DNA from: Candidatus Woesearchaeota archaeon
GTDB lineage: Archaea > Nanobdellota > Nanobdellia > Woesearchaeales > ARS49
Direction: 5' to 3'
Length of the DNA: 64,000 nt
NCBI GenBank assembly: GCA_030750765.1
Contig: JASMHM010000001.1
Location: 334,696-398,695, forward strand
This document shows positions 5,148 to 61,517 of this stretch, piece after piece. Numbering within the stretch: the first letter of the stretch is position 1; each line of letters opens with the position of its first letter. The notes beneath the pieces were generated by a model, which had not been told where the DNA came from, did not search any database, and saw nothing but the letters and a program-made list of their open reading frames with translations. The position numbers and the translations under genes are program-made.

Positions 5148-6146
5148 ATGAAATGCGTTGTTACAGGCGGGGCAGGATTCATCGGAAGTGCTATTGCTAA
5201 GCGATTAGAAAAAGACAATCATGACGTTGTCATCGTGGACGACTTCTCCGCAGGGTATGAAACCAACCTCAAAGGATTTTCCGGAGAGATAATCAAAGCA
5301 TCAGTCGTAGAAGCAGACAAGGTAGCTCCTGCAATTAAAGATGCAAACCTTATCTTCCATCTTGGAGCCATGAACGCCTTACCAGACTGCAGCAACGACA
5401 TGGTCGCAACCATGGAAGTAAATGTTAAGGGAACTGCTTCTTTGCTAGACATGGCAAGAAGAACCGCAGCAAAAGACTGCAGATTCGTCTTCACCTCTTC
5501 ATCCGCAGTGTACGAAGGAAGCGACAAGCTACCCAACACAGAAAGCGATCAACCAAACCCACACTTAGCATACGCAATATCCAAACTCCAAGGAGAATTC
5601 TTATGCAGAAGCTTCCACAAAAGTTTCGGACTACCCTACACTATAATCCGACCCTTCAACGTCTACGGCGAAGGCCAAGATTTTAGGCGCGAACAACCCC
5701 CAGTCATGTGCGCGCTAGCCATACCCTTACTGCAAGGCAAACAAGCAACCATTTATGGAGATGGCACCCAAGCAAGAGACTTTATCCATGTCGAGGACAT
5801 GGCAGAACTATTTGTCGTAGCAGCAACCCACCCAAAAGGAGCAGGACAAGCCTTCAACGGCGGCGTGGGAAAAAGTGTTAACATCAACGACATCTACAAA
5901 ATGATCTGCTCAGAACTCGGCACAGACAAAGAACCCATCTACGCACCAGCCCAAGGCTTGTTTGACAAGTATCCTGCATTGAAAGAAGGCAACTTTGTCT
6001 TCCGAGATGAAGCAGTAACGCACGAAAGCCTCAAAACAACCCAAGCAGACACCACAAAAACAAAAGACCTACTCGGCTGGGAACCCAAGATCAGCATGGA
6101 AGAAGGAGTTAAACGGAGTGTAGAGTACGTCAAACAGAACCTATGA
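5148..6146 (+). CDS. NAD-dependent epimerase/dehydratase (SDR extended family)
   Basis: MKCVVTGGAGFIGS Rossmann motif and a YxxxK-type segment. ATG 5148 preferred over the track's TTG 5142; TATA ~22 nt upstream. Confidence 0.8.
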   Translation: MKCVVTGGAGFIGSAIAKRLEKDNHDVVIVDDFSAGYETNLKGFSGEIIKASVVEADKVAPAIKDANLIFHLGAMNALPDCSNDMVATMEVNVKGTASLLDMARRTAAKDCRFVFTSSSAVYEGSDKLPNTESDQPNPHLAYAISKLQGEFLCRSFHKSFGLPYTIIRPFNVYGEGQDFRREQPPVMCALAIPLLQGKQATIYGDGTQARDFIHVEDMAELFVVAATHPKGAGQAFNGGVGKSVNINDIYKMICSELGTDKEPIYAPAQGLFDKYPALKEGNFVFRDEAVTHESLKTTQADTTKTKDLLGWEPKISMEEGVKRSVEYVKQNL

Positions 6147-6820
6147 TAACACTCGTCATCCCTGCATACAACGAACAAAATAGACTCCCAGACACGGTCA
6201 AGGCGTTTGCCAACTATTTTCCAAAAATAGACATCCTCATCGTGCCTAATGGTTGCACCGACAACACAGAAACCGTGGCACAAGAGCTAGCAACCAAGTA
6301 CAACAACGTAAGAACATGGGCAACCCCTACAGGAGGAAAAGGATTCGCAGTAAGAGAAGGATTCAAACGAGCCAAGCACGATCTGGTAGGCTTTGTGGAT
6401 GCAGACCTAGCAATAACACCCGAAGAGTTCGCCAAACTCCTCCCCTTTGCCAAAGAGAACGACGTCGTCATAAGCTCAAGATGGCTCAAAGACAGCAACG
6501 TAACCCAAAAAGAACCCGCCCAAGTACGCTTTGCCGGAAGGATTTTCAACCTCATGGTGCGAACCTGGTTCGGACTAAAAATATCAGACACCCAATGCGG
6601 AGCAAAAATATTCAAAACCGACTTAATGCGAAAAATCCTACCCAAATGCATTGTTAACAAAATGGCATTTGACGTAGAATTCTTGTACCACGCCAAAAAC
6701 TTCGGCGCAACCATAAAAGAAGTCCCCATCACCTGGAAGCACAACCCAGAAGAGTCCAAAACCGGCGTGTTTAAAACCGGAATAAAAATGATAGGACAAC
6801 TAGCAAGTATACGAAAATGA
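6143..6820 (+). CDS. glycosyltransferase family 2 (dolichyl-phosphate sugar synthase-like)
   Basis: VIPAYNE N-terminus, DxD (VDADL) and QCGAK motifs. Overlaps the upstream gene by 4 nt. Confidence 0.8.
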   Translation: MITLVIPAYNEQNRLPDTVKAFANYFPKIDILIVPNGCTDNTETVAQELATKYNNVRTWATPTGGKGFAVREGFKRAKHDLVGFVDADLAITPEEFAKLLPFAKENDVVISSRWLKDSNVTQKEPAQVRFAGRIFNLMVRTWFGLKISDTQCGAKIFKTDLMRKILPKCIVNKMAFDVEFLYHAKNFGATIKEVPITWKHNPEESKTGVFKTGIKMIGQLASIRK

Positions 6821-7809
6821 AAGCAGCAATAATTGGAGCAGGAAAGATGGGAGAAAAAAAGGCAGAAGCCTGCAAAGCCTGCGGCATAGACCTTGTCTAT
6901 GTAGACTCCATAAACGAAGACATGGTAGCCCAAATCTGCAAAGAACACAATGCCACGTCAAAACCATGGAGAGAATTCATCAACGAAGACATCGACCTAA
7001 TCTTTGTCTGCACCAGCCACGACGCACTCAAAGAAGCAACCGTGGCAGCATTAAATGCAGGCAAGCACGTATGCGTGGAAAAGCCAGCAGGAAGAAACTC
7101 CGCAGAAGTACAAGAAATCATCACCGCACACAATAACGCACTAGAAAAAAAATATGTAGGACTCAAAGTGAGTCTTAACCACCGCTTCCATCCCGCCATC
7201 TGGAAAGCAAAAGAACTAGCAGACAAAGGAGAGTTAGGCGAGCTCATGTTCATGACTGGAGAATACGGTCATGGAGGAAGAGACGGCATGGAAACCGAAT
7301 GGAGATGCGTCAAAAGTAAAGGCGGCGGCGGAGAACTCCTCGACCAAGGCTCACACATTATCGATCTTTACCAATGGTTCATAGGCCACCCAGACAGCGT
7401 CAACGGGTACGCACCCACGTACGCCTACAGAAACGAAAACGAACCTGTAGAGGACAATTGCTTCTTCAGAATGAGAACCGGAAAAAAATGCGGCCACTTC
7501 CATGTCAGCTGGACCATGTGGAAGAATGATTTCCGCCTAAAAATAGTCGGAGACAAGGGACTAGCCGTCATCAACGGACTCGGCAGGCACTACGGCAAAG
7601 AAACACTCACCATCTACAAACGAGGCGCCATGGGAAAGCCCTCAGAATCCTACGAATACCCGCCAGGGGATGACCCAGAACGGGACGAAAGCTTCATCGA
7701 CGAGCTCAAATACTTCCTCGAATGCATCGAAGAAGAAAAACAACCAGAAGGTAACATCAAAGAAGCTTTAGACAGCATGAAAATCGTGGAAAGCATATAT
7801 TCACAATGA
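6817..7809 (+). CDS. Gfo/Idh/MocA-family NAD(P)-dependent oxidoreductase
   Basis: MKAAIIGAGKMG Rossmann N-terminus and an EKP motif (VCVEKPA). Confidence 0.8.
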   Translation: MKAAIIGAGKMGEKKAEACKACGIDLVYVDSINEDMVAQICKEHNATSKPWREFINEDIDLIFVCTSHDALKEATVAALNAGKHVCVEKPAGRNSAEVQEIITAHNNALEKKYVGLKVSLNHRFHPAIWKAKELADKGELGELMFMTGEYGHGGRDGMETEWRCVKSKGGGGELLDQGSHIIDLYQWFIGHPDSVNGYAPTYAYRNENEPVEDNCFFRMRTGKKCGHFHVSWTMWKNDFRLKIVGDKGLAVINGLGRHYGKETLTIYKRGAMGKPSESYEYPPGDDPERDESFIDELKYFLECIEEEKQPEGNIKEALDSMKIVESIYSQ

Positions 7810-9011
7810 AAATAGGAATCCTAGGGGCATGGCATTTGGGAGCAGTGGTAGCCGCCGGACTCTGCGAGCACCACGACGTAAGCGTCCACGACCCTACGGT
7901 GGAGAGCCTCAAAGAAGGCGTTCCCGCAGTAGACGAGCCAGGAGTTGAAGAAAAATTAAAAGCAAACCTAGACAAAAGCCTGCACATCACCAGTGCAGAA
8001 GAGGCCATCAAAGACAAAGACTTTGTCATCATCGCCCATGATTCGCCTGTCAACGAAGACGACAGCGTCGACATAAGCCCCATCCTAGAAAGCGCTGCCC
8101 AGATCAAACAATACAGCAAAGAAACCATCATCGTTTGCATGAGCCAAGTACCAATAGGCACCTGCAAAAAAATAGAACAAGATCTTGGCATGCCAGTAGC
8201 GTACGTTCCTGAAAACCTACGCCTAGGAGAAGCGATGGACTGTTTCCTTAACCCGGACGTTGTTGTTATCGGAGCAGACAAAGACACAGCCAAACGAGTC
8301 AACGAACTCTACGCACCCGTCAAAGGAGAACGAGCATTCATGAGCGTGGAAAGCGCAGAGATGTGGAAGCATAGCATGAACTGCTATCTTGCGAGCATGA
8401 TAACGTTAGCCAACAACCTTGCAGACGTAGCACAAGCATACGGCGCAAACATCACAGACGTGATTGGCGGACTAAAAAAAGACCGAAGAGTCTCAGAAAA
8501 AGCCCCACTCGGACCAGGATTAGGATTCGGAGGAGGCACGCTCGGCAGAGACGTTAGCGTGCTGATAGATTTAGCAAAAGAAAAAAACATCAACGCTCCC
8601 ATGTTTAGCACCATCCTTGATTATAATCACACTCGACCTAACTTTGTGCTAGAAAAACTCAAACAAAAGGGAGCTAGCAAGATAGCAATACTAGGCCTAG
8701 CTTACAAACCAGGCACCAACACTCTCAGAAGAAGCATCGGCGTATGGCTTGCCAAAAAACTAAACGCCGTAGCCTTTGATCCAGCCATACCTACCGCAGA
8801 AGGCATAACCACCGCGTCAAGCGCAGAAGAAGCTTGCCAAGATGCTGACGCAATACTCATCGTGACTGCATGGCCAGAATTCAAGAACATAAAGTGGGAT
8901 GCTTTAAAGGTGAAGGAGAAATACATCTTGGATTGTAGAAACATGATGGACAAACAAGACCAAGAAAAAATAAGACAAGCAGGATTTGTCTACGAAGGAG
9001 TAGGCTTATGA
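7806..9011 (+). CDS. nucleotide-sugar dehydrogenase family protein (UDP-glucose/GDP-mannose DH-like) lacking the canonical catalytic Cys
   Basis: MKIGILGAWHLGAVVAAG N-terminus. The region aligning to the GGxCxxKD catalytic motif reads GFGGGTLGRD (Cys->Thr, Lys->Arg). Confidence 0.7.
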   Translation: MKIGILGAWHLGAVVAAGLCEHHDVSVHDPTVESLKEGVPAVDEPGVEEKLKANLDKSLHITSAEEAIKDKDFVIIAHDSPVNEDDSVDISPILESAAQIKQYSKETIIVCMSQVPIGTCKKIEQDLGMPVAYVPENLRLGEAMDCFLNPDVVVIGADKDTAKRVNELYAPVKGERAFMSVESAEMWKHSMNCYLASMITLANNLADVAQAYGANITDVIGGLKKDRRVSEKAPLGPGLGFGGGTLGRDVSVLIDLAKEKNINAPMFSTILDYNHTRPNFVLEKLKQKGASKIAILGLAYKPGTNTLRRSIGVWLAKKLNAVAFDPAIPTAEGITTASSAEEACQDADAILIVTAWPEFKNIKWDALKVKEKYILDCRNMMDKQDQEKIRQAGFVYEGVGL

Positions 9012-32284: not shown

Positions 32285-33741
32285 ACGTTCCTTACATCCC
32301 AAACCTTTAGTGACATCCTCCCAATCCTAAAGGACTGGGCTTCCAGTTAAAAACCTTTTGCTGGAGGGTTCCTGCTTCACAGACTGACTTACCCCGAGAG
32401 GTAGCGGTCCTGTCTCTACAGGCGTGAATTCGGGCAAGCCCTGCCCTACTGCTCTCTTCAATATTTCCAAAGCGGAATTGAAATCTCTATCCATAACAAA
32501 ACCACATTCACACTCGTGCGTTCTCTGTGATAACTCTTTCTTTTCTTTCCTTCCACATGCTGAGCACGTTTGTGTTGTTCCTCTGGGGTCTACTTTGATT
32601 ACTCGAGTGCCCGCACTTTCGGCCTTGTACTCAAGCATTCTAACAAAGCAAGCCCAAGAAGCATCCATAATATTCCTTGCATTAAACGATGAGCGAATCA
32701 TTCCATGTATGTTCAAGGCCTCAACAGCAATAAAAGTATATGTTTTTGCATACCCACGTGAAAGCTTGTGGAGAAAATCATTGCGCTGGTCAACGATTTT
32801 TTCGTGGACTCTCGCAACTCTCCTCTTTTGTTTTTCTCTGTTTCGAGAACCTTTTTTTGTTCTGGAGAGTCGTTTTTGTGCTCTTCTCAATCGCTTCAAA
32901 CTCTTTCCCAAAATTTTTGGACTGTCTTCCCGATGCCCATCGCTGTCAAACACGAAATTGGTTATGCCCAGATCAATACCGACAGCTTTCTCGTCACGAG
33001 CCGGCAGAGGTTTCGTAGTTGATTCTGCGGCAACAAATGCAAACCACCTCCCGCTCGCATGTTTTTTGATGGTGACTTGTTTAATCTTTCCTTCAATCTC
33101 ACGATGCATGATGAAGGGAATTTTGTCAATTTTGGAAAGATGGAGTAAGTCGTAGCGTGTGTTTCGTGGGATGATTTTGAATCCGGATTGGTTGTACGTG
33201 AAGGTTTTGAACCAGGCCTTGCCTTTGAATCTTAGCTTGCCTACCTTCATTCCCTTCCTCTTCAGACCAGACAGCACTCTTAGGTGAGCAAACAAACGAT
33301 AATTCTCATACTGTAAAACTTTTGAATATGCATCACACAATTCAGGATGTTTTCTTTTAATCTCTAAGATAAAATGTTGCAGATCCACCTGTTTAATCTT
33401 CTTTTTGCTAAATCGTTCCAGCAAGGCGTCGTACACAAAACGACACCTGTCAAGCGTCCACAATAATTTCTTCTCTTGAGGGGGTGTTGGGTACAACCGA
33501 AATTTATACGTTCTTATCATACAAACTTTAGCAAGATTTACACCCCTATATGCTTCACGCACGCATGTCCAGTGTCCAGTGACTCCGACGAGAAAAACCG
33601 GAAATCTTCCGGGAAAATAGCCTAAAGAATAGAGTAATCGACCGGTATGCCCTAACACAAACAACGAAGCAAAAGTAGGATTTATAAAAGTACGAATGAC
33701 CCACACCATACCTTTTTAAGGAACCGACGAGGTGTTGATGA
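32285..33741 (-). mobile_element. IS1341-type (solo tnpB) insertion; element ends not defined
   Basis: tnpB without an adjacent tnpA (no HuH motif ORF nearby). Inserted in the divergent intergenic region between the GT4 and methyltransferase genes. Confidence 0.35.
32327..33520 (-). CDS. tnpB: IS200/IS605-family TnpB (OrfB) RNA-guided endonuclease-like protein
   Basis: N-terminus MIRTYKFRLYPT is an OrfB_IS605 hallmark. RuvC-like region, and C-terminal zinc finger CSACG...CECG. The track's N-terminal extension (to 33709) is rejected. Confidence 0.8.
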   Translation of the reverse strand: MIRTYKFRLYPTPPQEKKLLWTLDRCRFVYDALLERFSKKKIKQVDLQHFILEIKRKHPELCDAYSKVLQYENYRLFAHLRVLSGLKRKGMKVGKLRFKGKAWFKTFTYNQSGFKIIPRNTRYDLLHLSKIDKIPFIMHREIEGKIKQVTIKKHASGRWFAFVAAESTTKPLPARDEKAVGIDLGITNFVFDSDGHREDSPKILGKSLKRLRRAQKRLSRTKKGSRNREKQKRRVARVHEKIVDQRNDFLHKLSRGYAKTYTFIAVEALNIHGMIRSSFNARNIMDASWACFVRMLEYKAESAGTRVIKVDPRGTTQTCSACGRKEKKELSQRTHECECGFVMDRDFNSALEILKRAVGQGLPEFTPVETGPLPLGVSQSVKQEPSSKRFLTGSPVL

Positions 33742-47285: not shown

Positions 47286-48185
47286 TTAGCGACCTAACTC
47301 TGAAGCTTTCTGCGTGTCTACCACCAAGTTCTTTCCGATGAGGACGTGTTGGATGATGCAGTTCTTTCCTTGTGCCTTTGCCTTGTAGACTGCTTTGTCT
47401 GCTTCTTCAAAAAGATCAGAATAGGTTACTTTTTCGTCCAGCTTGGTGGCTAACCCTATGGAAACCGTGCGTTCGCCGCTTTCGAGGCTTCGGCGTAGCT
47501 TTTCCATCTCCTCGTTGGCTTCCTTTGGCCCCATCATGAGATGTATGGCGAACTCCTCACCGCCATACCTGCCTACCGTGCCCTTTACCGAGCGTAACTT
47601 GTCTGCCACCTTTTGCAAGAGTTGGTCGCCGGCAGTATGCCCCTTAGTGTCATTGTATGTTTTGAAATTGTCAATATCTAGCATGGCTACGCTGACCTCT
47701 CCTTTCATCTTACTGGATACAACACTGGAAAAGTGTTGTCGGTTGTACAGTTTGGTTAGGGAGTCATGTGTTGCCTTTTCTTCCATATTGGTGTGGGCTT
47801 CCATGCCTGCCAGAGCTTTTTGCAGAACTTCCACGCTAAAGGTTAGTTCTTCTATGTACGCTTGGAGTGGCGTTGTTCCGTAGAGGAATACGGCACCAAT
47901 AAAACTTCGATCTTTAACAACAGGCACAGCGATGTAGTATCCTGCTAGTTCTTTGGGTGTGGGCCCTCCTTCGGCCATTTTTTGTTCGCGAAGCTTTTCT
48001 ACCATTTCCTTTTCGAACACTTTGTACTCTTTCTTGTCGTAAAGCTGCGTTCGATCTCCGGAAAGAATTATGGTGACGTTGCTTGCTTGGAAGGTATGCT
48101 GGAAGTGGTCTAATGCTTTTTGGATCACACTTTTTTTGTTGAGTATGCCTAGTAGTGCGACTGCTAGTTCATACCCCTTTCTCAT
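47286..48185 (-). CDS. GGDEF-domain diguanylate cyclase with N-terminal GAF-like sensor domain
   Basis: HDSLTKLYNRQHF, MLDIDNFKTYNDTKGHTAGDQLL, RYGGEEF (A-site, coordinates 47550-47564) and ADKAVYKAKAQGKN motifs. There is no RxxD I-site. Confidence 0.75.
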   Translation of the reverse strand: MRKGYELAVALLGILNKKSVIQKALDHFQHTFQASNVTIILSGDRTQLYDKKEYKVFEKEMVEKLREQKMAEGGPTPKELAGYYIAVPVVKDRSFIGAVFLYGTTPLQAYIEELTFSVEVLQKALAGMEAHTNMEEKATHDSLTKLYNRQHFSSVVSSKMKGEVSVAMLDIDNFKTYNDTKGHTAGDQLLQKVADKLRSVKGTVGRYGGEEFAIHLMMGPKEANEEMEKLRRSLESGERTVSIGLATKLDEKVTYSDLFEEADKAVYKAKAQGKNCIIQHVLIGKNLVVDTQKASELGR

Positions 48186-49251
48186 GCTTCACCCTTTTGA
48201 CTGCCTCTTTGAACTCTTCCCACTTATCCTTTCTTATGGTACCACCAGCCGCCATACGATGACCGCCTGCAACACCTTTTCCCTCGGCAGCTTCTGCTAG
48301 GATTTCATTACCAGGAATGTCTGCTTGCGTTCGCATGCTAATATGCACCTTATCTCCCCTAGTGTCGGCCACGATGAGCATTTTGTCTTTGTGTCGCTTG
48401 GAAAGAAGGCTTGCAACGGTTCCTTTGATGCCAAACTTGGGTTCTATCTCATAGAAAACAATTTCTCCCTCTTTGTCTGCCTTTTCATCGTACTCATCGA
48501 TCACTCTGTTGATCTCTTTGTTGATTATTTCTTCATACTGTGCGAGTTTGCTGTTTAGAACGTCATCAGGACCTTTGGCGTTGTACACGACGTCGTAGCA
48601 TTCTCCCACTTTTGTCTTGTCAAAGGCCTCTGCGCTTGAGATAACGATGGCACAATGCCCTAACACTGTTTCGAACCATTCATTGTTGGGGGCTATCTTC
48701 CATTTTTCGCACACTTTCTTGAGAAAGCCTTCCCATTTCTTTGTGGCAACGTCTCCAATCATGCCTACAGCGCACATCCAGTCTAGATCTTCCATGTCGA
48801 CCAAGACTGCAGCTACGTCGTACACGATCTGTGCGGCAGAATAACCGCTTGCGTCTTCAATATCGTATGCTAGCTGGGGTTTGTAGATGATTGCGTGCTC
48901 TGTGCTGCTTACCGGGTGATGGTCTAAGACCATGACATTTGCGAACTCGCTCATGCTCTTGAGGGTTGCAGCATCTCCATCACAGTTAAGATCGGTGATA
49001 ACAACTTTGGTTACGTTCTTTTGTTTAAGCATCTCCACGGTTGCTGGAAGGATGGTGACCTCGCCGCCTTCTTGGTTGTAGCGAACGTCGACAGGCTTGC
49101 CACGTATGCGTTCGACAAGTTTTGCGGCAAGAACACCACTCGTCACGCCATCCGGATCAGTATGATGGATGACTGCAACAACATCTTCTTTGGTTAAGGT
49201 TTTGAAGAAATCTTCTGTTGCTTTGATAAGTTCTGGATTTCTGACCTTCAT
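48169..49251 (-). CDS. DHH/DHHA1 phosphoesterase (NrnA/RecJ-core-like)
   Basis: HHTDPDGVTSG (motif I/II), LDHH (motif III) and GGHRMAAGG (DHHA1) motifs. TATA cttttaaagc ~22 nt upstream. Confidence 0.75.
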   Translation of the reverse strand: MKVRNPELIKATEDFFKTLTKEDVVAVIHHTDPDGVTSGVLAAKLVERIRGKPVDVRYNQEGGEVTILPATVEMLKQKNVTKVVITDLNCDGDAATLKSMSEFANVMVLDHHPVSSTEHAIIYKPQLAYDIEDASGYSAAQIVYDVAAVLVDMEDLDWMCAVGMIGDVATKKWEGFLKKVCEKWKIAPNNEWFETVLGHCAIVISSAEAFDKTKVGECYDVVYNAKGPDDVLNSKLAQYEEIINKEINRVIDEYDEKADKEGEIVFYEIEPKFGIKGTVASLLSKRHKDKMLIVADTRGDKVHISMRTQADIPGNEILAEAAEGKGVAGGHRMAAGGTIRKDKWEEFKEAVKRVKHEKGV

Positions 49252-52423: not shown

Positions 52424-53503
52424 TTGAATGGAATAACAGTCACGGATGCAGTTCTTAGGTTAAGCGACTCTTTGAATCCTTTCCTCAGCAAACCTCTTAG
52501 TCTAGAAATCTATCCTTACCGTATCGAATACTTTGAGGAAAACGATATTCAGGAACTAGGTGCGAAAGAACTGGGCGAGCTGGCCCAACATGATGCCATC
52601 TTCTTAGGAGCGGTGGGAGATCCACGAAGAAAACACGTTAAAGTAGAAACCGGCATTCTTCTGAGTATCCGCCAAACGTTTGACCAATACATTAATCTCA
52701 GACCGGTCGAACTGCCCGCGGGTGTGCCTTCTGTTTTGGCAAACAAAGGCTCTCAGGATATCGATTTTGTCATATGTAGAGAAAATACTGAAGGATTGTA
52801 TGCAGGCAGGGGAAGAATAGTTTCTCCCGGAACTGATTACAAATACGCAGTCCAAGAAATGGTGTGCAGTGACATGGGCGTGCGTCGTCTCGTAGAGTAT
52901 GCCACAAATTTAGCTATTGAGCGACCTGGCGAGTCACGCTTACACATCGTGTTCAAAAATAATGTCCTAAAATACGCAGCACAAATATGGGAACCCATCA
53001 TCGACGAATATCAACAAAGAACTGACGTGGATGTTCAATACATGCACGTTGACGCCTTTGTCGCAGCCATGATCACGCGACCAGAACAATTCCACGTAGT
53101 ATGCACAGAAAACATGTTTGGATATATTTGCACGGACCTGGGAGCAGTGCTCCAAGGTGGCATGAACGTTGCCGTATCCGGAAATCTGAATCCTACCCGG
53201 GAACACCCTTCAATGTTCGAACCCGTTCACGGCACGGCGCCGGACCTAGGGTATGATGATAACGGTCAACGGGACGAATCTCTTGTCCAAAGGATAAAGC
53301 CAGAAGCAGCCATGCTTTCATTTGCCATGATGTTAGAGCATCTTGGAGAATCGCGAGGAGCAGACGCACTGAAACATGCCGCCTTGTCTAACCTTCGCCA
53401 TCCTGACTATCAGGAAATGAAACTTGACGAGTTGACAGAAAGAGCAGGAAAGATTATTCTTACTTACGCTGAAAGCGGCGAAACGTTTCCGGCAAGTCAA
53501 TAA
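52424..53503 (+). CDS. isocitrate/3-isopropylmalate dehydrogenase family (LeuB-like)
   Basis: NLRPV, GDxxGxxV-type N-terminal strand, and NMFGYICTDLGA motifs. The conserved N-terminal segment IALIPGD lies upstream of any canonical start codon. Confidence 0.7.
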   Translation: MNGITVTDAVLRLSDSLNPFLSKPLSLEIYPYRIEYFEENDIQELGAKELGELAQHDAIFLGAVGDPRRKHVKVETGILLSIRQTFDQYINLRPVELPAGVPSVLANKGSQDIDFVICRENTEGLYAGRGRIVSPGTDYKYAVQEMVCSDMGVRRLVEYATNLAIERPGESRLHIVFKNNVLKYAAQIWEPIIDEYQQRTDVDVQYMHVDAFVAAMITRPEQFHVVCTENMFGYICTDLGAVLQGGMNVAVSGNLNPTREHPSMFEPVHGTAPDLGYDDNGQRDESLVQRIKPEAAMLSFAMMLEHLGESRGADALKHAALSNLRHPDYQEMKLDELTERAGKIILTYAESGETFPASQ

Positions 53504-53837
53504 TGTACTTGCCTTCTTCCAACCTGAATACCAATGGTTCGCCTTTAAACAACTGAATAAGGTCGATCTCGTATTTGCCCGGTGTCAATACTCTTATCGT
53601 TTCAAAATCTAGAATGACTGGCGCACCTGGATCTTTGTTGCCCACCATCTCGATGACGTCTTGTTCTATCTGGGTCTTGTCCTCATCGCTCAGCTTGCGC
53701 TCCACCAAAATCTTTGCGCTCTCAAGATTTTTCTTTTTCAGAAAGAAAAATAGCTTAGCGCCGCAAGTACATCCTTTGAGGATCTCCTCAGCCCCGTCGC
53801 CATAAACTTTTGCGCACCGAACACATTGATGTGGCAT
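53460..53837 (-). CDS. zinc-ribbon domain protein
   Basis: N-terminal CVRCAKVYGDG...CTCGAK (CxxC...CxC). Overlaps the convergent LeuB-like gene by 44 nt. Confidence 0.5.
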   Translation of the reverse strand: MPHQCVRCAKVYGDGAEEILKGCTCGAKLFFFLKKKNLESAKILVERKLSDEDKTQIEQDVIEMVGNKDPGAPVILDFETIRVLTPGKYEIDLIQLFKGEPLVFRLEEGKYIIDLPETFRRFQRK

Positions 53838-53925: not shown

Positions 53926-55281
53926 ATGAATAACGACCTAGTAAGCACTATCAACGAGAAATATCGAGGCAAACGATTAAAAGAGACAGCCCTCGCGCAC
54001 GTTAGGGAGGCAGGTATTGATACCAACCGATTTGTCTACTTTACTCCTTCCTTTGATGCAGATGAAGCTTTTGCCTTTGCTATGGGACGAGGCCAAAACG
54101 CCCGATTCGGACAGGCTTCTGAAGCGCGCAAACCACTCCAACTTTACATAGGAGACCAGTTTATGAACCTACTTTCGCGCATGACGCCCACAACGCTGAT
54201 TGATGCAAGCATGCTTGAAAAAGGATGGAAGGCACGCAAGACCAACACAAAGTGCTGGGCAAGAGATACGGACGTGCATGGAGGGCTTGATTTTGTCTTA
54301 AAATCCCCTCCAGATTCTATAACGCCACACAGGCACGAAACCACTATTGACGCAGCGTTCCTTGTCCAAGAAACGCCACTCATCTTAGAATCAGGCAACA
54401 CCAAGCATCGCGCCGAAAGCTTGTTTTCTGAAACGCCCTGGAAAAAACGAACAAGAGCATTGAACTTGGTTTACGAAAGCCGTGGTAAACGCCCGAAAAG
54501 ACTCATGATCTACTCTCGGAGTATGATTGCGAGCCTGCTGGGCGATGAGACAAGTCGAGAACAATTGCTTGCCCGCATGAAGTACAACAAAGGTTTGTAT
54601 TTCTTGCTACACCCTTGGAATCTTACCCAGCTTGATACACACGGTTCTGAGTTGGTCGCGAAATATCAGGATAAGAAGTCCGAAGATTGTATCGTTGAGA
54701 TCTGCCTAAGAGGCGGGGTCAATGAGAGGATGAAAAAATGGCAGAGCCACTTGCAAGACCTCTATGAAGAGTTTCGCACGCAATCTCCGGTATACCTAGC
54801 ACAGTATAACCCCGACCCCATAAGAGACCCGGTAGCGCGAGATGTCTACATAGAAGCTATGTCTCCCTTATTGAGGGCCATCCGGAATCAAAATAGTTGG
54901 GGTGCTTTTGAGTATACTGAATTTCTCATGCCGGTTAAAAGAATTCTGGGATTGATTGAGCAAAAGGTTCGTGAAGAAGATCAAGCGTTTGCGGTTGCTA
55001 GAGTTCTCAGACTCCCGGAATTCATCAGCGCTCTTCCAGTAGATGTTGCTGAAGATGAGCGATTCCCCATGCAACTACCTCACAAAAGGTTGGGTTACTT
55101 AGAAGGACATCTCAATCGATACGACCCTTATGGGAGAAAGTCTTTTGCCAAACACTGGGATGAGTTTGAGGGTTGGGCTAGAATGGCAAACAGACCCAAG
55201 GACATCATGGAGTATGGAACGCGATTGCCAGGATCTTATGACGGCTCAAATCGCGTTAGAGGAAAAAAGGTAGCGCAATAA
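53926..55281 (+). CDS. hypothetical protein (451 aa), Arg-rich, no recognisable motifs
   Basis: Long ORF with ATG start, in an intergenic context consistent with an independent transcript. Confidence 0.5.
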   Translation: MNNDLVSTINEKYRGKRLKETALAHVREAGIDTNRFVYFTPSFDADEAFAFAMGRGQNARFGQASEARKPLQLYIGDQFMNLLSRMTPTTLIDASMLEKGWKARKTNTKCWARDTDVHGGLDFVLKSPPDSITPHRHETTIDAAFLVQETPLILESGNTKHRAESLFSETPWKKRTRALNLVYESRGKRPKRLMIYSRSMIASLLGDETSREQLLARMKYNKGLYFLLHPWNLTQLDTHGSELVAKYQDKKSEDCIVEICLRGGVNERMKKWQSHLQDLYEEFRTQSPVYLAQYNPDPIRDPVARDVYIEAMSPLLRAIRNQNSWGAFEYTEFLMPVKRILGLIEQKVREEDQAFAVARVLRLPEFISALPVDVAEDERFPMQLPHKRLGYLEGHLNRYDPYGRKSFAKHWDEFEGWARMANRPKDIMEYGTRLPGSYDGSNRVRGKKVAQ

Positions 55282-55668
55282 TCACTTTTTCTTCTTTTTC
55301 TTGACATCCTTCGTAAGAAGTTCGATTTTGGAAGGATCGCGTTTGATTTTCTTGACCACATTCGCACTGCCGATGATGGTAATGCCGGTTTGCATGCCCA
55401 GAACTAACCCCATCATGTCGTACTTGAACTTTTGTAGGCCATCCTTGACTCTGTCTCTAGGATCTATGACTGCTAACTCTATCCCTTTGAATTCTTTGTT
55501 GATCTCTTCCATGGTCGCCTTGATGAGCTCTTTCTCCTCATCAGGTCTGAGCCTTCCTTGGAGAAGGATTATTTTGTTGTCTTTAGCAAGATTCAAGAGT
55601 TTTCGGATTCTTCCTAGGCTGGACAGCTTTTCTATCTCATGATAGCCCATTACGTGAAACGTTACCAT
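55282..55668 (-). CDS. conserved small protein co-transcribed with GTPase, poly-Lys C-terminus
   Basis: 128 aa. Starts 2 nt after the GTPase stop. Ends DVKKKKKK. Confidence 0.5.
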   Translation of the reverse strand: MVTFHVMGYHEIEKLSSLGRIRKLLNLAKDNKIILLQGRLRPDEEKELIKATMEEINKEFKGIELAVIDPRDRVKDGLQKFKYDMMGLVLGMQTGITIIGSANVVKKIKRDPSKIELLTKDVKKKKKK

Positions 55669-55669
55669 T

Positions 55670-56293
55670 CTATGCTCCTATTAGATCAAACACTTCTTCA
55701 TAGAAGTTATTAATATTTTTCCCATATTTAGCACTAATTCCCACAATGTTGTATTGCGGGAAGGCTGCCTGGATTTTCTTCATGTTTGCCTTTCGTAGAT
55801 CTACTTTGTTTGCGGCAATGGTTACGGGAATCTCTCGTGCTTGTAAGTTCCCAATAATTGTGATGTTTACTTGGCTGTATGGGTCTGTGGTGGCGTCGAG
55901 AACAACAACTACGGCATCCATGTCGTCCAACCACTTGATGCTGTCAATAACACCTTTTGTGGCTTCTTTTGCTCGTTTCTTGGCCTTCTTCTCTGGCATT
56001 CCTGCCTTAAGGAACTCTTCATAGTCCACTTTAGTTGCGATGCCTGGCGTGTCTACCAGGTTAAATTGTAGTTCTCGCCCGTCTTTGCTCTTGATGGTGA
56101 CGCTTTCCTTCATCTGGATCTCTCGGGTCTCGTGAGCCATCTTGCTCACTTTGCCTAATTCCTCGCCGAGCCAGTCCTTACAAATGCGGTTGGCGAGCGT
56201 TGTCTTGCCAGAATTAGGCGGACCGTAGAGACCTAGCTTAACATCCTGCTTAGCAAACAGCCTTCTAAACCATCGTTTTAGGAACCTTAACAT
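55670..56293 (-). CDS. small GTP-binding protein (archaeal MMR_HSR1-type GTPase)
   Basis: G1 GPPNSGKTT, G3 DTPG, G4 NKVD, G5 SAK. Confidence 0.75.
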   Translation of the reverse strand: MLRFLKRWFRRLFAKQDVKLGLYGPPNSGKTTLANRICKDWLGEELGKVSKMAHETREIQMKESVTIKSKDGRELQFNLVDTPGIATKVDYEEFLKAGMPEKKAKKRAKEATKGVIDSIKWLDDMDAVVVVLDATTDPYSQVNITIIGNLQAREIPVTIAANKVDLRKANMKKIQAAFPQYNIVGISAKYGKNINNFYEEVFDLIGA

Positions 56294-56373: not shown

Positions 56374-56610
56374 TTACTTTTTCTTGCCACCGCGCACCAT
56401 TTTAGCACGGCTAATGTCGCCTTTCTTGTCGACAAAATAGAGGTAGCCAGAATCTTTCTTGATTCCTACCTTAGCAACTTTTTGTGTCTTACCTGCGCTC
56501 TTCTTACGGCCACGGGCCATCTTTGCTCGGCTGACGTCTCCGTTCTTATCTACGAAGTACAGGTAGCCACTTTCTTTCTCAACTCCAACTTTTTCAACTT
56601 TTTCTGCCAT
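56374..56610 (-). CDS. small basic protein with two tandem ~37-aa repeats (KVG-x-K-x-SGYLYFVDK-x-GD-x-SRAKM-x-RG-x-KK)
   Basis: Internal duplication clear at the protein level. ATG (MAEKVEK) preceded by GGGGGAT 7 nt upstream. The track's upstream M is rejected. Confidence 0.55.
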   Translation of the reverse strand: MAEKVEKVGVEKESGYLYFVDKNGDVSRAKMARGRKKSAGKTQKVAKVGIKKDSGYLYFVDKKGDISRAKMVRGGKKK

Positions 56611-56686: not shown

Positions 56687-56887
56687 TTATTTTCTTTTAG
56701 ATTTCTTCTTTTTGGATTGTTTTTTTAAGGCCGGCTCTCGCACCCACCAATCTTTTGTAAGTAGGTTTGAGACTTTGGAAAATTTGGTTAACGATTTTTT
56801 GTAGTATTCCTTTGGCTTCTTGACCGGCTCCTCTTCCTTCTCCAACCTTTTGGCTTCCTTGAGCGCTTTCTTCACACGTTTGTTCAT
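56687..56887 (-). CDS. possible small Lys-rich protein (66 aa)
   Basis: The C-terminal half of the 133-aa track ORF is strongly basic (…KKQSKKKKSKRK). The N-terminal half overlaps the herA-like start on the opposite strand and is rejected. Confidence 0.3.
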   Translation of the reverse strand: MNKRVKKALKEAKRLEKEEEPVKKPKEYYKKSLTKFSKVSNLLTKDWWVREPALKKQSKKKKSKRK

Positions 56888-56938
56888 GACCCGTCGAAAA
56901 CAGAGCAGGTTTATAAGAATTGCTCCATTGACGGCCGT

Positions 56939-58351
56939 ATGAAGGGTCTTGTTATCGGAGGAGAGTTCAACAACATTCTTGTTCGAGAGAAGGCCGATGC
57001 AAAGATAGAGCTTGGAGAAATCCTTGTAGTGGATAATCAATTCTTGCAAGTGGTTGATTTGGAGTACGGCTCTCAGCTTTCTCAGCAAGGGTTAGAGCTG
57101 GCAAGCGGTCTTACCCTGGAAGGTCAGGATGTTATCTTGATGGACTCCAACATTAGACACTATGTTCTTGCGCGGATGAAAAATTTGGTGAGCATGGTGG
57201 ACAACAAACCCGTAGCAAGCAAGCAACTTCCCACCTTCTTTTCTGAAGTGAGGACACTCGCCAAAGAAGATGTTTCCTTTCTCACCTTACCCCAGAATCC
57301 TTTGGTGCTGGGAAAGTTACGCTCAGGTTCTACAGTGTTGGACGTTCCTGTTGGTTTGGATGGAGGGCTAGCCCTCTCCCATCATATTCTTGTTTGCGGC
57401 TCCACAGGTAAAGGAAAAAGCAATCTCATGCGAAACTTGTTATGGGAAGCGCAGGACAAAGACTATTGTGGCATGCTTATTTTAGATCCGCACGATGAAT
57501 ACTACGGTCGAACGCATCACGGGTTGAAAGATCATACCTCGAAGCCTGCTTACTATTCTAAGAACGCCCCTCCTGGTGCCTTCACGCTCACCATCAGCAC
57601 CAAGACCTTACAACCTCACCATTTTGATGGCGTGGTGCACTGGAGCGACGCACAGCGACAAGCATTGCAATCCTTCAAGTACGAATACGGAGACGCGTGG
57701 GTTACTGCCGCTTTGCAAGGAAAGGAATTGAAAGCGAAATTTGTGGAGATGACGGTAGGGGTCGTCCAGCGAAGATTGCAGCAGTTGTTAAGCATCGACA
57801 GCCATCTTAACGCAAGGGGCTGTTTTGATTTGCAAGCAGGCAGCACCACGATCAATGACATGGTGCGAGGGATACAAGAAGGAAAGACCGTCATCGTGGA
57901 TACGAGCGAGGTCTCAGGCCCTACTGAGTTGTTGATTGGTAGTATCGTTGCTAGCGCCCTTCTACATGCCAACAAGGCAAAAGGGTTTGATGAGTTGAAA
58001 GAAGCTCCCACAGCTAGCATCGTGCTGGAAGAGGCACCCAGAGTCCTAGGAAAGGACGCACCGCCTAATGTGTTCTCTACCATAGCACGCGAAGGAAGAA
58101 AGTTTAAGGTGGGGTTAATTGCGATAACACAAGTACCGAGCTTGATCCCTCGAGAGATCTTGGCAAACATGAACACGAAAATCATTCTCGGCATGGAGAG
58201 CAAGATTGAGCGTCAGGCAGTGATTGATTCTGCACCTCAAGATTTGAGTACAGACGAGAGAACGATAGCTTCGTTTGACAAGGGAGAGGCTTTAGTGACG
58301 AGTTCGTTCATCCCCTTCCCGTTTCCCATCAAGATTCCAGAATTTACTTGA
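56939..58351 (+). CDS. HerA-like ATPase (HAS-barrel + FtsK/HerA RecA-like P-loop domain; DUF87-type)
   Basis: N-terminal HAS-barrel-like MKGLVIGGEF...GEILVVD. Walker A GSTGKGKSN, DPHDEYY box, Walker B TVIVDTSE. Confidence 0.7.
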   Translation: MKGLVIGGEFNNILVREKADAKIELGEILVVDNQFLQVVDLEYGSQLSQQGLELASGLTLEGQDVILMDSNIRHYVLARMKNLVSMVDNKPVASKQLPTFFSEVRTLAKEDVSFLTLPQNPLVLGKLRSGSTVLDVPVGLDGGLALSHHILVCGSTGKGKSNLMRNLLWEAQDKDYCGMLILDPHDEYYGRTHHGLKDHTSKPAYYSKNAPPGAFTLTISTKTLQPHHFDGVVHWSDAQRQALQSFKYEYGDAWVTAALQGKELKAKFVEMTVGVVQRRLQQLLSIDSHLNARGCFDLQAGSTTINDMVRGIQEGKTVIVDTSEVSGPTELLIGSIVASALLHANKAKGFDELKEAPTASIVLEEAPRVLGKDAPPNVFSTIAREGRKFKVGLIAITQVPSLIPREILANMNTKIILGMESKIERQAVIDSAPQDLSTDERTIASFDKGEALVTSSFIPFPFPIKIPEFT

Positions 58352-60116
58352 TGTAACCGCCCTTCTGAAGATTCCACAACTTCTTGTACAATCCTTTCTG
58401 TTTGATGAGCTGGTTGTGCCTGCCCATCTGGACTATTTTTCCCTTATCCAACACAACAATCTTGTCTGCTTGCATGATGGTAGACAATCTGTGTGCTATG
58501 ATGATCGCGGTTCTTCCTTTCATCAACCTTTGGAGATCCTTTTGGATGTCGCTTTCTGTTTGCGAGTCTAGGGCAGATGTGGCCTCGTCTAGCACCAATA
58601 TCTTCTTGTCTGCCAGGATGGCTCGAGCTATCGAAACGCGCTGCTTTTCGCCTCCAGAAAGACGCACACCCCTCTCTCCAACGATGGTGCGTTCCTTTTG
58701 TGGCAGGGTAGCCACTACTTTGTCTAGTTGCGAAAATTTGAGAGCGCGGGCTACATTTGCAGGGCTGGATCTAGGGCTAGAGAAACGAACGTTGTTGTAT
58801 AAGGTATCATCAAACAGCACGCATTCTTGAGGAACCACGCTAAGTTCCTCTCGAAGACTTTGTTGCTTGAATTCTAAGGTGCTCTTACCATCTATCAACA
58901 CGGCACCGTGGTTCACGTCGTACAACCGGTAGAGTAGCTTGATGAGTGTAGACTTTCCTGAGCCAGAAGGTCCTACAAGCGCGACCTTTTCTCCAGGTTT
59001 GATGGTGAAGTTGAAGTTCTTGAGCAAAGGCTTGCCGTGATAGGCAAACGTCACATCTCTGAACTCAACTCCGCCTTCTCGGATGCGTATGTTCTTTGCT
59101 CCGGAGATGTCCTTCACCTCATTTTCTACCTTGAAATAGCTAAAGATGCTTTGGAAGTCTGCCATAACGTCATAGAAGTTTCTAATTCCGTGAACAAACC
59201 CGAACATATCGTGGACAATGCCGCCAAAGATGGTGTAGATGAACACGACAGTGCCTATCGTGATCTCACCATTGACAAAACTGCGTAGGGAAAAGTAGAG
59301 AAGTGCTATCGTTCCCACCCCTAAGATGAAGAAGTGGCCTGCATCAGAGATACGATGGTAATCCCAGAATAACAGCATTTTTCTGCATGTCACATGGATT
59401 ATTTTTTTGAAGCGCCGCATGACGTTTTGTTCTTTACCAAAATACTTGATGGAATCAATATTGGTGAATAGGTCACTAATCTGTCCTTTTTCGTAATCCT
59501 CTGAAGCGATGGCTGCGATGTTGGCTCTTTGCTGATACCTCTGCAACACCAAGCTATGCGCGACAAAAATCACGAAAACCAACAAAACAATGATTGCGGG
59601 TTCGAGGCTAAAGTACATCAAAGAACTCACGCTCACCGCGATCTGGATGATCATGGGTGCAACGTTGAACCCTAAGAGGTCTGTCATTTTCTCCATCGCC
59701 CTTCCGCCTCGGGTTATTTTGGAGATCAACGTCCCTGTCCTGTGGGAGGTGTGGAAATGGTGGGACAATCCTATGACGTGATTGAAGAGAGATTCCTTAA
59801 GGTCAAAAGTGAGTCTTATGGCAAGTCGGTTGATGCAGGAAACAAAGAACCATTTTCCTATGACCCGCACTACCACCACTGCAGCGAATACTGCTAAGGC
59901 GATGAGCAGCGAGGACATCAGAGCGCTTTTGGTTATTGTCTCTGCCACCCACTCGTTACCGCGGTCAACGATAAGTTTGAAGGCTAGTTTCTCAAATAGA
60001 GCTGCAATCTCGGTGAAAAAAACAGCGAGAAACATTCCAAAGGCAACCCATTTGTGCTTACGCAGGTAGCCCCAGTAAATCTTCAGATTCCTACCAAACT
60101 CGATTTTTTGACTCAT
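58344..60116 (-). CDS. ABC transporter, fused permease/ATP-binding exporter (MsbA/multidrug type)
   Basis: Six N-terminal TM helices. Walker A GPSGSGKST, signature LSGGEKQR, Walker B ILVLDEATSALD. Confidence 0.8.
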   Translation of the reverse strand: MSQKIEFGRNLKIYWGYLRKHKWVAFGMFLAVFFTEIAALFEKLAFKLIVDRGNEWVAETITKSALMSSLLIALAVFAAVVVVRVIGKWFFVSCINRLAIRLTFDLKESLFNHVIGLSHHFHTSHRTGTLISKITRGGRAMEKMTDLLGFNVAPMIIQIAVSVSSLMYFSLEPAIIVLLVFVIFVAHSLVLQRYQQRANIAAIASEDYEKGQISDLFTNIDSIKYFGKEQNVMRRFKKIIHVTCRKMLLFWDYHRISDAGHFFILGVGTIALLYFSLRSFVNGEITIGTVVFIYTIFGGIVHDMFGFVHGIRNFYDVMADFQSIFSYFKVENEVKDISGAKNIRIREGGVEFRDVTFAYHGKPLLKNFNFTIKPGEKVALVGPSGSGKSTLIKLLYRLYDVNHGAVLIDGKSTLEFKQQSLREELSVVPQECVLFDDTLYNNVRFSSPRSSPANVARALKFSQLDKVVATLPQKERTIVGERGVRLSGGEKQRVSIARAILADKKILVLDEATSALDSQTESDIQKDLQRLMKGRTAIIIAHRLSTIMQADKIVVLDKGKIVQMGRHNQLIKQKGLYKKLWNLQKGGYIK

Positions 60117-60326
60117 CGTCCATTACCCTCATATATCTCATTTTTTTGAGAGGAATAGATGCCAGGAACAAGACAAGCAGCACGAAATTTTAAGAAGTAC
60201 CCAGATGATGATATTCTTTCCGAAGACGATGAGTGATGCATTTTGCCACCTTATCGGGTAAGGAGATCCACCTCTTTATAAGCGTTTAGTCCGCAATTTT
60301 ATAAACCGTCCATCACCGGCGGTTAC

Positions 60327-61517
60327 ATGAAATTCGCCCATCTCGCGGACTGTCATCTTGGAGCTTGGCGAGACGAATCCTTGCGTGAGGCGAACGTTGC
60401 CTGCTTTGAAGGAGTGATAGCACAGTGCATCACAGACAAGGTAGATTTTGTTCTAATCAGTGGGGACTTGTTCAACAATCCTTTTCCTCCGTTAGAAATC
60501 ATGAAGCGCGCGGCTAGATGTTTTCGCTCGTTGCAACAAGCTTCCATTCGTGTGTATGTCATTCCAGGAAGCCATGACCTTACCGTAGGGGGAAAGACCA
60601 TGCTTGACGTGTTTGATGACGCAGGGTTAGTGGTGAACGTTGCAAAGGATGGCGAGCTTCGCGTTGCTAAAGATCCTACAGGAGTGAGCATTGCTGGCGT
60701 GATGGGCTTGCGTGGAGGTCTTGACAAGCATACATACGAAACGTTAGATCGCGCAGCCTTAGAAGCCATTCCTTCACCAAAAATCTTCATGTTCCATGCG
60801 TTGTTGGCAGAATTGAAAACCATCAACGTGGAGGGCATGCCCATGTCTTTGCTTCCTAAAGGTTTTGATTACTATGCAGGAGGCCACGTGCACGACAGCC
60901 AGATCAAAGACAACATTGTATACCCTGGTCCCTTGTTTCCCAATAGTATCTCCGAGTTAGAGCAAACCCAGCATGGTTCGTACATGTTGGTGGACGACTT
61001 TGTTGCTAAGAAAGTACAATTACCAAACAACGTGGTAAAGTTGCGTGTTGGGTGTGATGGCTTTCTTCCTGAAGAAGTCAATCAAAAAATGTTGGACTTG
61101 GTTGGTGGCAGCATGCAAGATGCCATCGTGTGTTTACGGTTGGAGGGCGTGATGGATAACCCTTCCAAAGTAAAGTTTCAAGCGTTTGTGGACGCGTGCA
61201 AAGAAGCAGGTGCTCGCGCTGTGCTAAAGAACACGAGTAAGTTGGAGAGCAAGAATCTGGCTGAGTTCAAGATGCCTGACAATGCAGACATTGAAGGGAG
61301 TCTGCTCAAAGAAAAAGCGTCAGACCCTGCTCTTGCACGGAAATGGCTGGATGCGCTTTCTGTTGAGATGATTGAAGGGGAGACCAAAACTGCGTACGAA
61401 GCGAGGGTGTTGGCAGAGTCAAAAAAGTTAGCGAGTGACGGTGTAGATCATTCCAAGGATGCCCGCCCCGATAATCATGGGGAGCAGGGAGATGAAAACC
61501 CATCCGCACACAACTAA
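60327..61517 (+). CDS. Mre11/SbcD-family calcineurin-like metallophosphoesterase nuclease
   Basis: Motifs HLADCHLG (I), ISGDLFN (II), GSHD (III), FMFHALL (IV), GGHVHD (V). TATA ttttataaac 25 nt upstream. Confidence 0.7.
   Translation: MKFAHLADCHLGAWRDESLREANVACFEGVIAQCITDKVDFVLISGDLFNNPFPPLEIMKRAARCFRSLQQASIRVYVIPGSHDLTVGGKTMLDVFDDAGLVVNVAKDGELRVAKDPTGVSIAGVMGLRGGLDKHTYETLDRAALEAIPSPKIFMFHALLAELKTINVEGMPMSLLPKGFDYYAGGHVHDSQIKDNIVYPGPLFPNSISELEQTQHGSYMLVDDFVAKKVQLPNNVVKLRVGCDGFLPEEVNQKMLDLVGGSMQDAIVCLRLEGVMDNPSKVKFQAFVDACKEAGARAVLKNTSKLESKNLAEFKMPDNADIEGSLLKEKASDPALARKWLDALSVEMIEGETKTAYEARVLAESKKLASDGVDHSKDARPDNHGEQGDENPSAHN

Follow-up and report, generated by a model that had tools for sequence, protein, structure and literature searches.

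In archaea, herA, mre11, rad50, and nurA form a conserved operon, and the locus analyzed here raises the question of why a HerA-type ATPase gene and an Mre11-type nuclease gene should stand apart from rad50 and nurA in a woesearchaeote, a tiny symbiotic archaeon. The locus lies within a 64-kb stretch of contig JASMHM010000001.1 (64,000 nucleotides, nt; referred to as the window), where a herA ortholog (positions 56939 to 58351, + strand, 470 amino acids, aa) is followed after 1975 nt by an mre11 ortholog (60327 to 61517, + strand, 396 aa). The gene of an MsbA-like ABC exporter (58344 to 60116, − strand, 590 aa) occupies the space between them; it is convergent with herA, and the 3′ ends of the two genes overlap by 8 nt. 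An earlier reading made from the DNA letters (the sequence-only reading) had called the HerA-type ATPase, the Mre11/SbcD-type phosphoesterase, and the MsbA-type exporter between them on the opposite strand, and both positions and family assignments were upheld. Its further proposal of a stand-alone, non-canonical HerA of the defense or conjugation type was not borne out. We conclude, with a probability of roughly 80%, that the HerA and Mre11 of this locus are canonical, if divergent, and that their genes are end-resection genes of an operon that has become fragmented.

The ATPase, which carries the NCBI product name 'ATP-binding protein', matches the Pfam DUF87/HerA central domain (3.4e-21). 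Its Walker A motif (GSTGKGKS, 57398 to 57421), Walker B motif (IVLEEAP, 58019 to 58039), and arginine-finger segment (AREGRKF, 58085 to 58105), all on the + strand, are intact, as is a DPHDEY box, and the first three are invariant across 23 HerA orthologs. The protein ends without the C-terminal tail of ~30 aa (ends SFxGVK) that most woesearchaeal orthologs carry. Among the curated NCBIfam models, HerA_Thermprot scored 77 bits over residues 63 to 469 and helicase_HerA scored 68 bits; VirB4 and TraC reached 21 and 14 bits, respectively, in matches limited to the P-loop (residues 146 to 189). In a single-sequence search against solved structures, HerA of Thermococcus kodakarensis (9x1l) and of Sulfolobus solfataricus (4d2i) ranked at the top. 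A family profile built from the 23 orthologs and searched against PDB matched the S. solfataricus protein (SsoHerA, 4d2i) at 1.8e-32 with 116 bits and the T. kodakarensis protein (TkHerA, 9x1l) at 1e-26 with 97 bits. HerA proteins of defense systems (Sir2-HerA, DUF4297-HerA, TdpA) were matched at ~1e-14 to 1e-7 with up to 57 bits, FtsK was matched at ~1e-6 with up to 30 bits, and VirB4 gave no match in this profile search of PDB. An AlphaFold2 model had an overall predicted local distance difference test score (pLDDT) of 67, with an ATPase core at 80 to 95 and a poor N terminus, and its top fold match was again 4d2i. Judged by these profile and fold matches, the window ATPase belongs with the genuine HerA of archaea and not with VirB4 or the defense clades. 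The grouping with VirB4 that the sequence-only reading had raised was not found in the comparisons with PDB and NCBIfam.

A defense or DNA-transfer system, in which a Sir2-HerA, DUF4297-HerA, or VirB4/Ced-like ATPase would act with the phosphoesterase as effector, can draw on the generic HerA models of PADLOC, which matched at 88 bits, and on the NCBIfam CedD model, whose 72 bits on the window ATPase come near the HerA model scores. These similarities are outweighed by profile scores for the defense HerAs that are ~18 orders of magnitude weaker than that for SsoHerA and by the confinement of the VirB4/TraC similarity to the P-loop. Gene context points the same way. The neighbors are arvABC, two small proteins, the exporter, mre11, and gatCAB, with no adjacent Sir2, DUF4297, or other effector, and no type IV secretion genes were found in the window. 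When PADLOC was applied to the ATPase, the nuclease, the exporter, and two unknown open reading frames (ORFs), only generic HerA and ABC matches were returned, and no system context. Known defense systems (Sir2-HerA/Nezha, DUF4297-HerA, TdpAB) have the HerA fold in common with the window protein; the window differs from them in the missing effector partner, in the much weaker sequence similarity, and in its core-genome synteny, which is conserved in 80 species and is not that of a variable-island gene set. Orthologs of the ATPase, moreover, sit in nurA-herA-mre11-rad50 clusters. A defense or transfer role is therefore scarcely credible, and the lead toward a defense or conjugative HerA can be set aside as false.

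The second gene encodes a calcineurin-like phosphoesterase (Pfam Metallophos, 5e-11) with the NCBI product name 'DNA repair exonuclease'. All five nuclease motifs are present on the + strand, namely motif I (ADCHLG, 60345 to 60362), motif II (GDLFN, 60462 to 60476), motif III (GSHD, 60567 to 60578, where Ser replaces the usual Asn), motif IV (MFHA, 60789 to 60800), and motif V (GGHVH, 60879 to 60893). Residues D8, H10, D47, H83, H157, H187, and H189 are invariant among 30 orthologs, as is the Ser of motif III. The best curated NCBIfam matches were Mre11_Pyroc and Mre11_Sulfo, and a single-sequence search against solved structures placed Mre11 of Pyrococcus furiosus (PfMre11) and Methanocaldococcus jannaschii (MjMre11) at the top. 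A family profile of the 30 orthologs matched PfMre11 at 1.7e-36, MjMre11 at 2e-21, and SbcD at ~1e-10 to 1e-12. Bacterial SbcCD has the Mre11/SbcD fold and metal-binding motifs in common with the window protein, and NCBI calls many of the orthologs 'exonuclease SbcCD subunit D'; however, the SbcD profile match is confined to the first ~85 residues and falls well below that to archaeal Mre11, and no sbcC is adjacent in the window. Two vaguely named NCBI proteins thus gain specific names, HerA and Mre11.

The AlphaFold2 model of Mre11 (pLDDT 86) shows a nuclease domain, a capping domain, and, at the C terminus, three helices (residues 322 to 371). Foldseek aligned this model to PfMre11 (3dsd, 2.8e-20) and, over 402 columns, to the MjMre11 chain of the MjMre11-Rad50 complex (3av0). 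Behind the capping domain, a C-terminal helix-loop-helix with an EGE..Y/F-E motif is encoded at 61326 to 61439 (+ strand); its EGE is invariant across the 30 orthologs, and the form EGE..D[FY]E is common to the window Mre11 and to every Mre11 of the wider clade, the rad50-adjacent ones included. Because the motif is shared and the model aligns structurally to 3av0, we infer that this element binds Rad50. Retention of the motif therefore argues for a Rad50 partner.

Relatives of the window ATPase number in the thousands at 54 to 60% identity, and all named ones are from Woesearchaeota or Nanoarchaeota. Gene order was compared in 83 Woesearchaeota/Nanoarchaeia loci, comprising three long contigs and 80 loci found by scanning a single genome of each species. 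The window proteins were mapped onto all of them; 12 loci were too short to judge, leaving 71 that were informative. In 54 of the 71, mre11 lay downstream of herA on the same strand, either adjacent (25 loci) or at a distance of 0.2 to 1 kb (13 loci), 1 to 3 kb (11 loci), or >3 kb (5 loci). Opposite strands were seen once (1/71), and mre11 was not seen near herA within at least 5 kb in nine loci and within 1.5 to 5 kb in seven. All three long contigs have mre11 directly after herA, with a 4-nt overlap in L008 and L009, and carry two small ORFs and arvA/arvB/arvC (OapABC) upstream on the other strand; L096 has the arrangement of these contigs, with the same overlap but a single small ORF. Both the sequence, at 51 to 59% identity across the 80 species, and the synteny with housekeeping genes, that is, with aminoacyl-tRNA synthetase/GatCAB and arvABC genes, are conserved as expected of core genes. 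A stand-alone HerA, as had been proposed, is thus not supported, as herA and mre11 are neighbors across the Woesearchaeota and the HerA of relatives occurs in full four-gene clusters.

The genes that separate herA from mre11 differ from locus to locus. Almost all of 58 gap ORFs were unrelated, non-repair singletons, and the families represented include LysX/ArgB-type lysine/arginine biosynthesis, GGDEF, DNA methylase, HNH, and symporter; a conserved third gene at this junction was rejected on the same count. The window exporter, which has ABC_membrane and ABC_tran domains and scores 370 bits with MsbA-family models (cut-off 602), fits this pattern. Only L093 and L094, the two closest relatives, have it downstream of herA, and it is absent at the herA-mre11 position in 83 other loci. 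The sharers of the exporter, P0002 (68% identity) and P0003 (60% identity), also have the shortened HerA of 470 to 474 aa. Because the linkage is widespread, the gap genes are unrelated, and the exporter is confined to the two closest relatives, the herA-mre11 pair is taken to be old and its junction to be a frequent site of insertion. Judged by its distribution, the exporter is a lineage-specific insertion and not part of the repair module, and the separation of ~2 kb does not indicate that the two genes function independently.

The remaining members of the archaeal operon were not found nearby. Pfam calls for every gene of the window revealed neither Rad50 (SMC_N/AAA_23 type) nor NurA, tblastn of the window with Rad50 and NurA queries from a relative gave no match, and a NurA hidden Markov model (HMM) likewise had no match in the window. 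A hidden NurA or Rad50 was also sought among the window ORFs that have no Pfam match (377, 460, 472, 292, 550, and 451 aa), with nothing relevant at E ≤ 1. For the window, then, the absence reported by the sequence-only reading holds, and adjacency of rad50 and nurA, which would have spoken against it, was seen neither here nor in any of the 83 relatives. Neither protein was encoded among the 58 gap ORFs.

Several large proteins at related loci were considered as candidates and rejected. Homologous proteins of ~910 aa (43 to 48% identical) lie between herA and mre11 in L033 (7642 to 10398), L051 (15017 to 17734), and L059 (4156 to 6930); the L033 copy has no Pfam match. Tested as a possible divergent Rad50, they proved to have no P-loop and, by eye, to contain two GGDEF/palm-like segments (IDMTACN...GD and IDGFNAFN...QGDEIW), which gives them the look of doubled domains. 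A 678-aa HerA paralog in L031 is an ATPase of the DUF87/HerA_C type that ends in a winged helix and has no NurA neighbor, and a 639-aa ORF without a Pfam match, beside a stand-alone mre11 in L095, encodes a secreted protein and not Rad50. The only SMC-type protein among the 83 loci was a 1164-aa SMC in L087.

Wider relatives retain the complete set. A profile search of 1.84 billion representatives returned 188 HerA relatives at E ≤ 1e-30, among which P0253 and P0289 are proteins of ~950 aa that join a HerA part to an Mre11 part. Six members of its cluster, taken from assemblies made independently (JGI, NCBI, ENA, and Logan), carry the P0289-type fusion, and no mention of a HerA-Mre11 fusion was found in the searchable literature. 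In L097, an 80-kb contig, the fusion (5395 to 8232) is preceded by a NurA-like gene, whose 347-aa product has a weak NurA match (E = 0.014), and followed by rad50. The L097 Rad50 scored ~105 to 109 bits with four Rad50 equivalog models and has both an N-terminal KNIRSH...GDVGSGKS sequence and a CPLC zinc hook. Natural HerA::Mre11 fusions thus exist beside NurA and Rad50, and they could serve directly as constructs for structural studies of the physical coupling of HerA-NurA and Mre11-Rad50. In the HerA homologs P0271 and P0273 from the same search, Walker A is interrupted right after GKGKS by a large intein that includes a homing-endonuclease region, a further sign of core-gene behavior.

With the L097 Rad50 as query, we recovered P0427 ('repair protein SbcC/Rad50 [Candidatus Woesearchaeota archaeon]'), which has the Rad50 zinc-hook Pfam domain, P0438 ('SMC family ATPase [Candidatus Woesearchaeota archaeon]'), and proteins from Nanobdellota and Pacearchaeota. 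These Rad50 proteins were aligned, and a metagenome scan with the alignment yielded 50 loci. Four of these (L102, L103, L110, and L119) have nurA-herA-mre11-rad50 in this order on one strand, with HerA 37 to 46% and Mre11 30 to 35% identical to the window proteins; in L110 and L119, the NurA score exceeds the Pfam cut-off. Gene context establishes the window pair as orthologs of the cluster genes. In many other loci of the scan, mre11 directly precedes rad50, and rad50 stands alone among housekeeping genes in L098, L099, and L105.

Several observations weigh against so canonical an assignment. The HerA_Thermprot and helicase_HerA scores of 77 and 68 bits compare with equivalog cut-offs of 800 and 970, respectively; for the nuclease, Mre11_Pyroc scored 79 bits against a cut-off of 600 and the sbcd subfamily model 61 against 78. 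Scores so far short of the NCBIfam equivalog cut-offs mark both proteins as divergent within their families. In the HerA model, the N-terminal HAS-barrel was predicted as beta strands with low confidence. Replacement of the metal-binding Asn of motif III by Ser is clade-wide; GSHD was present in all 68 Mre11-type ORFs examined across the DPANN-type clade, the rad50-adjacent Mre11 proteins included. Finally, no Rad50-like ORF was found within 10 kb of herA in the 83 loci, and the NurA HMM detected no NurA in the window, in ~1.4 Mb of woesearchaeal herA neighborhoods, or in 96 herA loci.

These absences could be read to mean that Rad50 and/or NurA has been lost in Woesearchaeales, leaving a minimal machine of two components in which HerA feeds DNA to Mre11 as the sole nuclease. 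Such a machine would account for the persistence of the herA-mre11 linkage where neither rad50 nor nurA is ever close by, and the natural fusions suit it. Mre11 and HerA are known to interact physically in Sulfolobus acidocaldarius (Quaiser et al. 2008, PMC2288612), an observation on the same two proteins that is consistent with the kept linkage and the fusions but that comes from a crenarchaeon with the full four-gene operon and not from DPANN archaea. According to one report, many genes of repair and recombination are missing from DPANN genomes (PMC8407392), and our Rad50 search gave few proteins labeled Woesearchaeota. However, the fusion is itself flanked by NurA-like and Rad50 genes, a zinc-hook Rad50 is annotated in Woesearchaeota, the window Mre11 retains the C-terminal helix-loop-helix motif of the rad50-adjacent Mre11 proteins, and stand-alone rad50 loci occur, as expected for a dispersed system. 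A two-component machine is thus unlikely in our estimate. Were it true, HerA and Mre11 would make up a self-sufficient complex of motor and nuclease that needs no NurA and, in some lineages, no Rad50; Mre11 would take the position of the nuclease on the HerA hexamer, and the fusions, the kept linkage, the GSHD variant, and the conserved HerA tail would mark a rewired form of end resection in reduced genomes. No explicit statement on Rad50, NurA, or Mre11 in DPANN archaea or Woesearchaeota was found in the literature. Orthogroups for Mre11 and HerA, but none for Rad50 or NurA, are listed in the supplement of PMC8421398; that list is not exhaustive, since SMC is missing from it too, and it was not used as evidence of absence.

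We therefore favor divergent but canonical HerA and Mre11 from a broken-up operon, for which the HerA-NurA/Mre11-Rad50 system of Sulfolobus, Pyrococcus, and Thermococcus (4d2i, 9x1l, 1ii7, and 3av0) is the closest model. The HerA architecture and ATPase motifs are the same, as are the nuclease, capping, and C-terminal helix-loop-helix regions of Mre11 and the position of herA near mre11. Differences are that rad50 and nurA are unlinked in Woesearchaeales and that, in the window, the pair is split by an exporter, GSHD takes the place of GNHD, and HerA lacks its C-terminal tail. The ancestral arrangement was probably a colinear nurA-herA-mre11-rad50 cluster, such as is still kept in related DPANN-type lineages. 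Fragmentation in Woesearchaeales has left herA and mre11 as neighbors, with rad50 presumably elsewhere and nurA unlinked or lost, and the herA-mre11 junction has repeatedly gained unrelated genes. In the sub-lineage of the window, insertion of the MsbA-like exporter in antisense orientation coincides with the loss of the short HerA tail, and each repair gene now has its own candidate TATA box. The four-gene resection operon is thus split apart across a sizable order of DPANN archaea, with herA and mre11 still linked.

By analogy with the Sulfolobus, Pyrococcus, and Thermococcus systems, both window proteins are expected to be biochemically active. HerA is predicted to form hexamers that translocate along double-stranded DNA at the expense of ATP, and Mre11 would be a Mn2+-dependent end-processing nuclease. 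Together with Rad50, which is presumably encoded elsewhere in this genome, Mre11 would recognize and trim DNA ends; the HerA hexamer would then pump duplex DNA through its pore to the nuclease, yielding 3′ tails for RadA.

Separate transcription of the two genes, as the sequence-only reading had proposed in calling them monocistronic, seems probable from their upstream sequences. A TTTATAA box, a candidate TATA element, ends 23 nt before the ATG of herA (56910 to 56916, + strand) within a 51-bp divergent intergenic region, and a candidate promoter with the same box ends 23 nt before the ATG of mre11 (60298 to 60304, + strand), with a second copy at 60275 to 60281. The window contains 19 copies of TTTATAA where 7.5 would be expected, and the 23-nt spacing recurs at boxes 692 to 698 and 2709 to 2715, which precede starts at 721 and 2738, respectively. 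herA and mre11 therefore probably each have their own promoter and a leaderless mRNA, and the spacing suggests that transcripts in this organism are mostly leaderless.

On the other side of the herA promoter region, a divergent gene (56687 to 56887, − strand) encodes a Lys-rich protein of 66 aa with an ATG start and no Pfam match; it ends 51 bp before herA. The Lys-rich ORF had been described as overlapping the herA promoter region, but the 133-aa form with a TTG start that overlaps herA (56687 to 57088) is not supported by homologs. Homologs with an LLKPEWFV-type motif occupy the equivalent position in L007 to L009, L010, and L012. An HMM of the gene detected it in 19 of 79 loci, in 14 of which it is directly divergent from herA, and a universal partnership with herA was rejected on this frequency. 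Between arvA/oapA and herA, a further gene (56374 to 56610, − strand) encodes a basic protein of 78 aa made of two ~35-aa repeats (KVxKVGVxKxxGYLYFVDKxGDxSRAKMxRGxKK). It belongs to no Pfam or NCBIfam family, is much better conserved than the Lys-rich protein, with copies 75 to 83% identical in ~40 related loci, always near arvA/oapA and herA, and could be an uncharacterized nucleic-acid-binding protein.

The arv genes (Pfam matches in parentheses) follow on the − strand as arvA/oapA, a GTPase gene at 55670 to 56293 (MMR_HSR1), arvB/oapB at 55282 to 55668 (OapB), and arvC/oapC at 53460 to 53837 (OapC). A 451-aa ORF on the + strand (53926 to 55281) with no family match interrupts arvC-arvB here, and arvA, arvB, and arvC are contiguous in the relatives L007 to L009 and L096. 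The FtsK/HerA superfamily includes segregation pumps, and the order arvC-arvB-arvA-(78-aa gene)-(Lys-rich gene), followed divergently by herA-mre11, recurs in about half of the related loci. These two points would suit a functional coupling of the pair to both small basic proteins and to arvABC (oapABC), which are genes of vesicle formation or associated with the origin; pump and nuclease might then serve, for instance, to export DNA, load vesicles, or segregate chromosomes. Against such a coupling, arvA and herA lie anywhere from 0.2 to 7 kb apart, the orientation sometimes flips, and relatives with the full repair operon do not have the arv neighborhood, which makes it very improbable. A role of arvABC in vesicle formation has been described (PMC10927574).

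Elsewhere in the window, Pfam content comprised glycosylation, SecDF, GatCAB, AspRS, arvABC/oapABC, GGDEF, DHH, and TnpB, and the largest ORF is of the NeuB type (644 aa). A gene for a GGDEF-domain protein (47286 to 48185, − strand) lies beside one for a DHH/DHHA1 phosphoesterase (48169 to 49251, − strand), a pair of the cyclic-dinucleotide signaling type in a DPANN archaeon. The pairing is kept in two related woesearchaeal contigs, L008 and L096, and the L096 GGDEF protein carries PocR/GAF sensor domains. An IS605-family OrfB/TnpB gene with a Cas12f-like TNB domain (32327 to 33709, − strand) lies amid glycosylation and methyltransferase genes.

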